Shown here in pieces: positions 5,402-5,660 of a DNA stretch of 64,000 bases (positions within the stretch are counted from its first letter, which is position 1; each line of letters starts with the position of its first letter). A model generated the notes under the pieces. It was not told the DNA's origin. It saw nothing but the letters and a program-made list of their open reading frames with translations, and ran no database searches. Made by a program: the position numbers and the translations under genes. The DNA comes from an uncultured Actinomycetota bacterium (GTDB lineage: Bacteria > Actinomycetota > Actinomycetes > Mycobacteriales > Mycobacteriaceae), in the NCBI GenBank assembly GCA_963733755.1, contig CAVTEZ010000008.1, forward strand, positions 48,328-112,327, given 5' to 3'.

Positions 5402-5454
5402 GCAGCTCCTTCCATCAGGAGCCCAGACTGTCAACAACCTCAGTCAGTTTTAGA
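4432..5454 (-). mobile_element. IS481-family insertion sequence, 1023 bp
   Basis: Imperfect 27-bp terminal IRs (4432-4458 and 5428-5454, 17/27 identical). Left flank GCTAGC (4426-4431) fits the NCTAGN target known for IS481. The right copy of the duplication is split by the IS110. Confidence 0.88.
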
Positions 5455-5460
5455 GCTAAT

Positions 5461-5660
5461 GTGATCCGAACAGCGAGCCTTCGCTCGATAGGTTCTTGTT
5501 CGGGGGACGCTGTTCACCGAGCCGCCGGTTGGTGAGCGTCGTTATGAGCTGAAGCGTTGGTCGACTTCTAAGGCTAGATCACGCCCCGGCCGGTGGTGAG
5601 GGTTCCTGTAGCACTGATGGGGTGGCGTGCCGCCGAGCACTTATCCATTAGCTTGTCGCC
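5461..5660 (+). ncRNA. Predicted IS110 bridge RNA (5' hairpin, target-binding loop, donor-binding loop); ends approximate
   Basis: Hairpin ccgaaca..tgttcgg with inner cgagc/gctcg. Candidate guides TTATGAGCT (5542-5550), GGCTAG (5572-5577), TGGGGTGGC (5618-5626) and CATTAG (5646-5651) match the target and donor junction sequences. Confidence 0.78.

Follow-up and report, generated by a model that had tools for sequence, protein, structure and literature searches.

Nested insertion of an IS110-family element into the target-site duplication of an IS481-family element in a Mycobacterium-like actinobacterial genome

Members of the IS110 group, among them IS621, are insertion sequences with a DEDD recombinase that carries a PF02371 domain and with a CT core (PMC11208160, PMC11208158). 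Their non-coding left end lies upstream of the gene, and the target-binding loop of the bridge RNA carries the left target (LT) plus core in the same sense on its 5' side and the complement of the core plus the right target (RT) on its 3' side. Additionally, their promoter is assembled across the circle junction. Insertion of DEDD-family elements into other mobile elements has precedents: IS4321/IS5075 are found in Tn21-family inverted repeats, where about 900 insertions give one logo, and ISKpn4 sits in attC sites (PMC11187229). For the IS481 family, NCTAGN is the published consensus of the target-site duplication (PMC3053399, PMC6794481). Both IS481 of Bordetella (PMC3053399) and ISRe46 of Rhodococcus equi (PMC6794481) show this 6-bp duplication, and in ISRe46 its TAG gives the stop of the transposase (PMC6794481).

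Here, we describe a locus in which an IS110-family element abuts the end of an IS481-family element. It lies in a stretch of 64,000 nucleotides (the window) of a genome assembly of 4.97 Mb (38 contigs, 65.1% G+C, 91% complete) that contains eight copies of the IS481 element but a single copy of the IS110 element. Homologues carry Mycobacterium sp. names in public records, and the exact IS110 recombinase protein is on record in another assembly. The unpublished genome G423 underlies none of the statements made here. The IS110 element shares with IS621 and its group the recombinase with PF02371, the CT core, the position of the non-coding left end, the two-sided loop and a putative promoter across the circle junction. 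The IS481 element shares with its relatives from Bordetella and Rhodococcus the NCTAGN duplication, and with ISRe46 also the stop codon supplied by it, but represents a different member of the family. Along the window the order is a fadD-like gene (forward strand), the IS481-family element, the IS110-family element and a GT4 glycosyltransferase gene (reverse strand), the two flanking genes being convergent. The features are as follows, the boundaries of the IS110 element having been set by alignment with relatives and with copies of 95.7-99.7% identity.

2628..4430 (+), fadD-like acyl-CoA ligase gene (PF00501 and PF23562), its TAG stop at 4428-4430 inside the left copy of the IS481 duplication
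4426..4431 (no strand), left copy of the IS481 target-site duplication, GCTAGC; NCTAGN duplications also flank other IS481 copies
4432..5454 (-), IS481-family element of 1023 bp (rve, rve_3, LZ_Tnp_IS481 and HTH domains)
4427-5437 (-), IS481 transposase gene, its stop codon formed by the CTAG of the duplication
5449..5455 (+), left target TTTAGAG, read by the left target guide
5456..5457 (+), left copy of the core dinucleotide CT; CT(A) marks both junctions here, as it does in nearly all relatives
5458..6951 (+), IS110-family element of 1494 bp with one core copy counted
5542..5550 (+), left target guide (LTG) TTATGAGCT of the bridge RNA, in the 5' side of its target-binding loop
5570..5577 (+), right target guide (RTG) AAGGCTAG, in which GGCTAG is the reverse complement of CTAGCC
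5619..5627 (+), putative left donor guide GGGGTGGCG, read off the alignment of relatives
5645..5651 (+), core CCATTAG of the putative right donor guide, invariant in the alignments and the reverse complement of CTAATGG, with which the left end starts
5706..6929 (+), IS110 DEDD recombinase gene, 407 aa (PF01548 and PF02371); an open TTG start also lies at 5685
6926..6931 (+), TTGACA, a putative -35 box over the recombinase stop codon
6950..6955 (+), right core copy CT (6950-6951) and right target AGCC (6952-6955)
6950..7972 (-), intact GT4 glycosyltransferase gene (PF00534 and PF13439)

The left junction of the IS110 element reads ...GTCAGTTTTAGAG / CT / AATGTGATCC... and the right one ...CCTGGGATGT / CT / AGCCGCGG, so that the full series of junctions is GGGCTAGC / TGTGTGAC...TTTTAGA / G-CT- / AATGTGATCC...CCTGGGATGT-CT- / AGCCGCGG. 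Positions 5449-5454 are the final six bases of the IS481 element, and the right duplication copy starts at 5455. The CTAG at 4427-4430 serves as a double stop, for fadD (TAG, plus strand) as well as for the IS481 transposase (minus strand), and the stop of the glycosyltransferase gene on the minus strand is preserved via the CTA at 6950-6952.

The transposase of the IS481 element is of the DDE (rve) type with an N-terminal HTH and a leucine zipper (PF00665, PF13683, PF13011, PF13565), which places it in this family. The eight copies in the genome are 91-100% identical, all have the ends TGTGTGAC...TTTTAGA, and six of the eight show the 6-bp NCTAGN duplication when the window copy is counted after removal of the IS110 element. 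The preference for NCTAGN, already asserted in the preliminary description, thus agrees with the published consensus. A diverged copy (91%) at C30:15477-16470 has no left-side CTAG duplication and lies about 220 bp from an intact tRNA-fMet gene.

Since deletion of the IS110 element in silico restores a perfect GCTAGC on both flanks of the IS481 element, IS481 inserted before IS110, and IS110 entered the right copy of the duplication. The reverse order, with IS110 in the empty site first and IS481 placed beside it later, finds nothing in its favour except the adjacency of both elements. It predicts a duplication of GCTAAT, but the left copy actually reads GCTAGC and, in the right copy, IS110 separates GCTA from GC, and we give this order hardly any credence. 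In eight related genomes the fadD and glycosyltransferase genes are adjacent and convergent with no insertion sequence between them, with 11-151 bp separating the aligned stretches of the two genes. The exact empty site, ACAAGGGCTAGCCGCGG, is deduced from the duplication; close relatives were rejected as a source for it, as the nearest genomes are about 85% identical with a differing junction and provide evidence of synteny only.

That the other partner belongs to the IS110 group is apparent from several properties. The recombinase matches PF01548 (2.3e-36) and PF02371 (1e-11), the long non-coding region upstream of it contains the two-sided target-binding loop, and the element ends without terminal inverted repeats, a 2-nt core at both junctions replacing a longer duplication. 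The preliminary description had proposed a left target guide, TTATGAGCT, that matches the IS481-end flank TTTAGAGCT (5449-5457) at seven of nine positions and the empty-site flank ACAAGGGCT, as deduced, at only five of nine. Both counts were reproduced on re-reading of the sequence. The match of 7/9 alone proves nothing, because 25% of 5000 shuffled left ends (248 nt) yield some 9-mer that matches at 7/9 or better. Therefore 190 loci of the family were gathered, their ends were fixed, 142 left ends were aligned and the match of the guide column to the left flank of the same locus was counted over 129 junctions. From LT1 to LT7 it amounts to.36,.47,.57,.62,.84,.86 and.95, compared with.18-.26 at two control positions, and for the column aligned with 5570-5577 the match to the right flank of the same locus, taken as reverse complement, is.89-1.0. 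In the RNAalifold structure the LTG and RTG columns face each other across a single internal loop that is closed by covarying stems with compensatory changes, both sides being changed in 13 of 27 pairs. Because of this covariation between guide and flank in the 142 aligned relatives and of the placement in the internal loop, the assignment of the guide at 5542-5550 is correct, and its programmed target is predicted to be TTATGAG-CT-AGCC.

For the putative donor guides, the motifs GGGATGTCG and CCATTAG are conserved and match the ends of the element, which hardly vary among relatives. In the window the left donor guide reads GGGGTGGCG and matches the right end GGGATGT-CT at 6/9; most relatives have GGGATGTCG at this position. 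One case of donor covariation was seen, in L014/L015, where a GGGGTGT guide goes with a GGGGTGT right end. One change sets the window copy apart from all copies fetched: a private G->T at 5462 (position 7 of the left end counted from the core), where the seven near-identical copies compared all have G. Through this change the terminal pairing to CCATTAG, the putative right donor guide, would be lost.

Two further observations concern the element itself. TTGACA (6926-6931) followed after 17 nt by TCTAAT would arise only across the junction of right and left end in the excised circle (6926-6951 joined to 5458-5460); the same -10 position in the chromosome reads TCTAGC, and GCTTGAC is kept in IS110 relatives. 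An Rfam scan of the window locus and three related loci gave no bridge-RNA family, the sole match being Ms_AS-4 (RF02464, 'Actinobacteria sRNA') with 97-103 bits. In every copy examined it lies within the recombinase gene in antisense orientation (window 6527-6608 on the minus strand, L156:3322-3403, L192:3822-3903, L208:1088-1169), so that this Rfam family seems to represent a conserved segment of the transposase genes of the IS110 family.

The terminus of the IS481 element supplies six of the seven LT bases, the original site contributing LT7, the core and AGCC. Together with the duplicated G it converts GGG-CT-AGCC to GAG-CT-AGCC, i.e. LT6 is changed from G to A, which repairs the mismatch at a position that is matched in 86% of the insertions of the family. 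If sites are scored by family-frequency weights, the occupied site reaches 12.8 bits with the IS481 end, the empty one 8.4 bits and a perfect one 17.1 bits. Among the sites of the genome it thereby moves up from about rank 79 to share ranks 4-6, with only three sites scoring above the IS481 ends and about 78 scoring at least as high as the empty site. No ATGAGCTAGCC site occurs in this genome and 24 GAGCTAGCC sites are found unoccupied. The statement of the preliminary description that the IS481 end improves the target of the IS110 element is thus supported by the repair of LT6, by the increase from 8.4 to 12.8 bits and by the GAG found in all ten distinct left junctions of same-guide copies (see below). 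Plausibly, the IS481 end created a usable near-cognate target, the empty site presumably being a much poorer substrate. With a single event in the genome, a causal role of the IS481 bases is beyond proof from sequence. Some family members sit at poor LT matches of 0-3/7 (partly alignment slips), and because such sites are occasionally used, an insertion into GGG-CT-AGCC might also take place.

A related explanation holds that both elements merely share a taste for CTAG, so that IS481 via NCTAGN and IS110 via CT-AGCC collided at the same place and the terminal bases of IS481 were irrelevant. It can point to the right half, core and LT7 (G), all of which come from the original site and not from IS481, to the many IS110 relatives that also use CTAG-containing sites and to the 800 CTAGCC sites in the 5 Mb genome, typically located at gene ends. 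Yet A at LT6 and G at LT5 occur in 10/10 same-guide junctions and the family matches its guide at LT6 in the proportion given above, but the empty site has G there and about 78 other sites of the genome score at least as well. We consider a mere collision improbable.

How the guide is used elsewhere was followed in its own copies. The recombinase falls in a 45-member cluster at 90% protein identity, and 25 contigs with IS110 copies 95.7-99.7% identical at the DNA level were fetched, all with the RTG AAGGCTAG and with the LTG TTATGAGCT, or TTGTGAGCT in one variant. Flanks were counted per side, because contigs with one common flank differ at the other: L194, L195, L196, L198 and L199 have the same left flank and different right flanks. 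Pairing of left and right flanks of metagenome contigs was rejected, since short-read assemblies are chimeric across the IS110 repeat. In this way ten distinct left junctions were obtained, namely TTTAGAG (window), TTATGAG, TAATGAG, TGATGAG (at four sites), GTATGAG, AACTGAG and TACTGAG. All ten share GAG-CT, and CT-AGCC is found in 15 of 15 distinct right junctions. Same-guide copies match their own left flank at 4-7/7, mostly at 6-7/7, and the window copy at 5/7; its junction is the only one of the ten without T at LT4 and also the only one at an IS481 end. The guide is tuned to (T)NATGAG-CT-AGCC and not to TTTAGAG. The closest species-representative relatives (L111-L118 and L190, 86-90% protein identity) have different guides; they were rejected as a test of preference and used for covariation alone.

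These counts bear on the suggestion of the preliminary description that the IS110 element preferentially follows this IS481 element, i.e. that its guide has been tuned to the IS481 end plus the NCTAGN duplication in a kind of evolved piggybacking. Four of the six LT bases given by the IS481 end do match the guide, and IS481 ends make up three of the six best-scoring sites of the genome, one of them occupied. The other two TTTAGAG-CT-AGCC ends (contig C35 near 76657 and contig C14 near 40336) are both empty, so two of three compatible ends are unoccupied. The chance of landing on one of the three IS481-derived sites among 25 GAGCTAGCC sites is 0.12 if uniform and about 0.5 among the six best sites; because of these values the single insertion at an IS481 end carries no statistical weight. 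The guide fits non-IS481 sites better than the IS481 end, and just one of the ten distinct same-guide junctions is located at such an end. An IS481 transposase is present in the flanks of none of the 189 other family loci, the window locus alone having one, and no IS110 element follows the IS481 right end in about ten further distinct right ends from other samples. The 22-mer of the junction is absent from the 400 other genomes of the genus and present in this genome only (401 searched). In ERZ25039465, which holds both elements, the IS110 copy resides in a tRNA-fMet remnant and the sole readable IS481 right end is unoccupied. Short-read metagenome contigs tend to break at repeats and could hide copies adjacent to IS481, but seven contigs with just 15-124 nt of left flank have non-IS481 sequence in all cases. 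Counting of IS110 homologues that abut IS481 ends, as the preliminary description had proposed, gave no enrichment, the outcome it had itself named as speaking against the idea. Evolved piggybacking is already largely refuted by the junction and locus counts, and we regard it as very unlikely.

The best target of the guide is of a different nature. The flank with a 7/7 match, ...GATTCGAACCTGCGACCTCTGGGTTATGAG / CT / AGCCGGTCGC..., corresponds to the 3' half of initiator tRNA-fMet in reverse complement. This remnant begins with the anticodon loop CTCATAA, reaches the discriminator base and is identical in 44-45 of 45 nt to the genome's own tRNA-fMet (C30, complement 16688-16764). It is found at L192:2707-2751 and also in L207, L210, L213 and L156. 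On its other side 135-210 bp are conserved across contigs, with divergence beyond. L156, a 79%-identical relative, is inserted at the equivalent position in a sister remnant, and there the RTG compensates (GGTTAG for CTAACC). An intact tRNA gene was rejected as the cognate target, since aragorn detected no intact tRNA in the reconstituted empty sites, which means a partial tRNA. A search over 2.5-3 kb around the remnant for a 5' half, made with a split or intron-containing tRNA in mind, found none. In the intact tRNA-fMet gene the LT half is present, but CC-CAGC replaces CT-AGCC, and the guide is therefore not expected to accept this gene as a full target.

The remnant may be the attachment-site scar of an integrative element; no integrase or phage genes were seen within about 2.5 kb of it in L156 and L192. 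A wider reading would be that this IS110 lineage lives mainly on junctions made by mobile elements, using the tRNA-fMet scar or, where the scar is absent, an IS481 junction. We rate this as rather unlikely; if true, the expansion of one mobile element would provide an RNA-guided one with new landing pads.

Altogether, the demonstrated anatomy, insertion order, guide identity and same-guide target spectrum describe a nested insertion of ordinary type, in which a new representative of an already known RNA-guided family entered another element, with no new mechanism. The sequence of events would have been that IS481, duplicating GCTAGC, inserted at the CTAG common to the convergent stops of the glycosyltransferase gene and fadD. 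The IS481 end ...TTTAGA, the duplicated G-CT-AGC and the next C would then have formed TTTAGAG-CT-AGCC, a near-cognate for an IS110 element whose guides specify TTATGAG-CT-AGCC, and a circle of this element would have recombined with the right duplication copy at its CT core. This insertion would have been guide-directed yet incidental, in a genome with no fully cognate site and with IS481 ends among the few best ones. We consider this account, i.e. IS481 first, a near-cognate site made by it, and IS110 entering without evolved preference for IS481, as the probable one and hold it with good confidence.

The locus can thus be considered as a natural, well-controlled example of the tolerance of a bridge RNA in its LTG. 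Among the observed insertions the three core-proximal LT positions and the right half are invariant and the distal positions are loose, and a non-target can become a usable near-cognate target through the insertion of another element. This is relevant to the prediction of off-targets of bridge recombinases. A co-evolved partnership of IS110 and IS481 is unsupported.

Compared with IS621, the IS110 element described here comes from an environmental Mycobacterium-like actinobacterial host, has a recombinase of 407 aa and shows an invariant A after the core (CTA). Its natural LT matches are looser at the four distal positions, and it is known from sequence alone. With IS4321/IS5075 it shares the location of a DEDD-family element inside the end of another transposable element. 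In contrast to those elements, essentially all copies of which reside in transposon ends, the guide studied here has one of ten junctions in such a place, and this one is near-cognate. Dedicated targeting of mobile-element ends of the IS4321/IS5075 type would place most independent copies in the end of the partner and would have the guide match that end in full, but most copies with this guide lie elsewhere and its match to the IS481 end is 5/7 LT positions. The similarity to ISPa11, ISKpn4 and ISPpu10 (PMC11187229; bioRxiv 10.64898/2026.03.19.712850) lies in the guide-directed use of a repeated conserved sequence, as the best target of the window element, the 3'-half remnant of tRNA-fMet with its conserved flank, recurs in several contigs. 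The recurrent target itself differs: in those three elements it is a REP or attC sequence, and for the guide of the window IS110 it is a partial copy of a tRNA.
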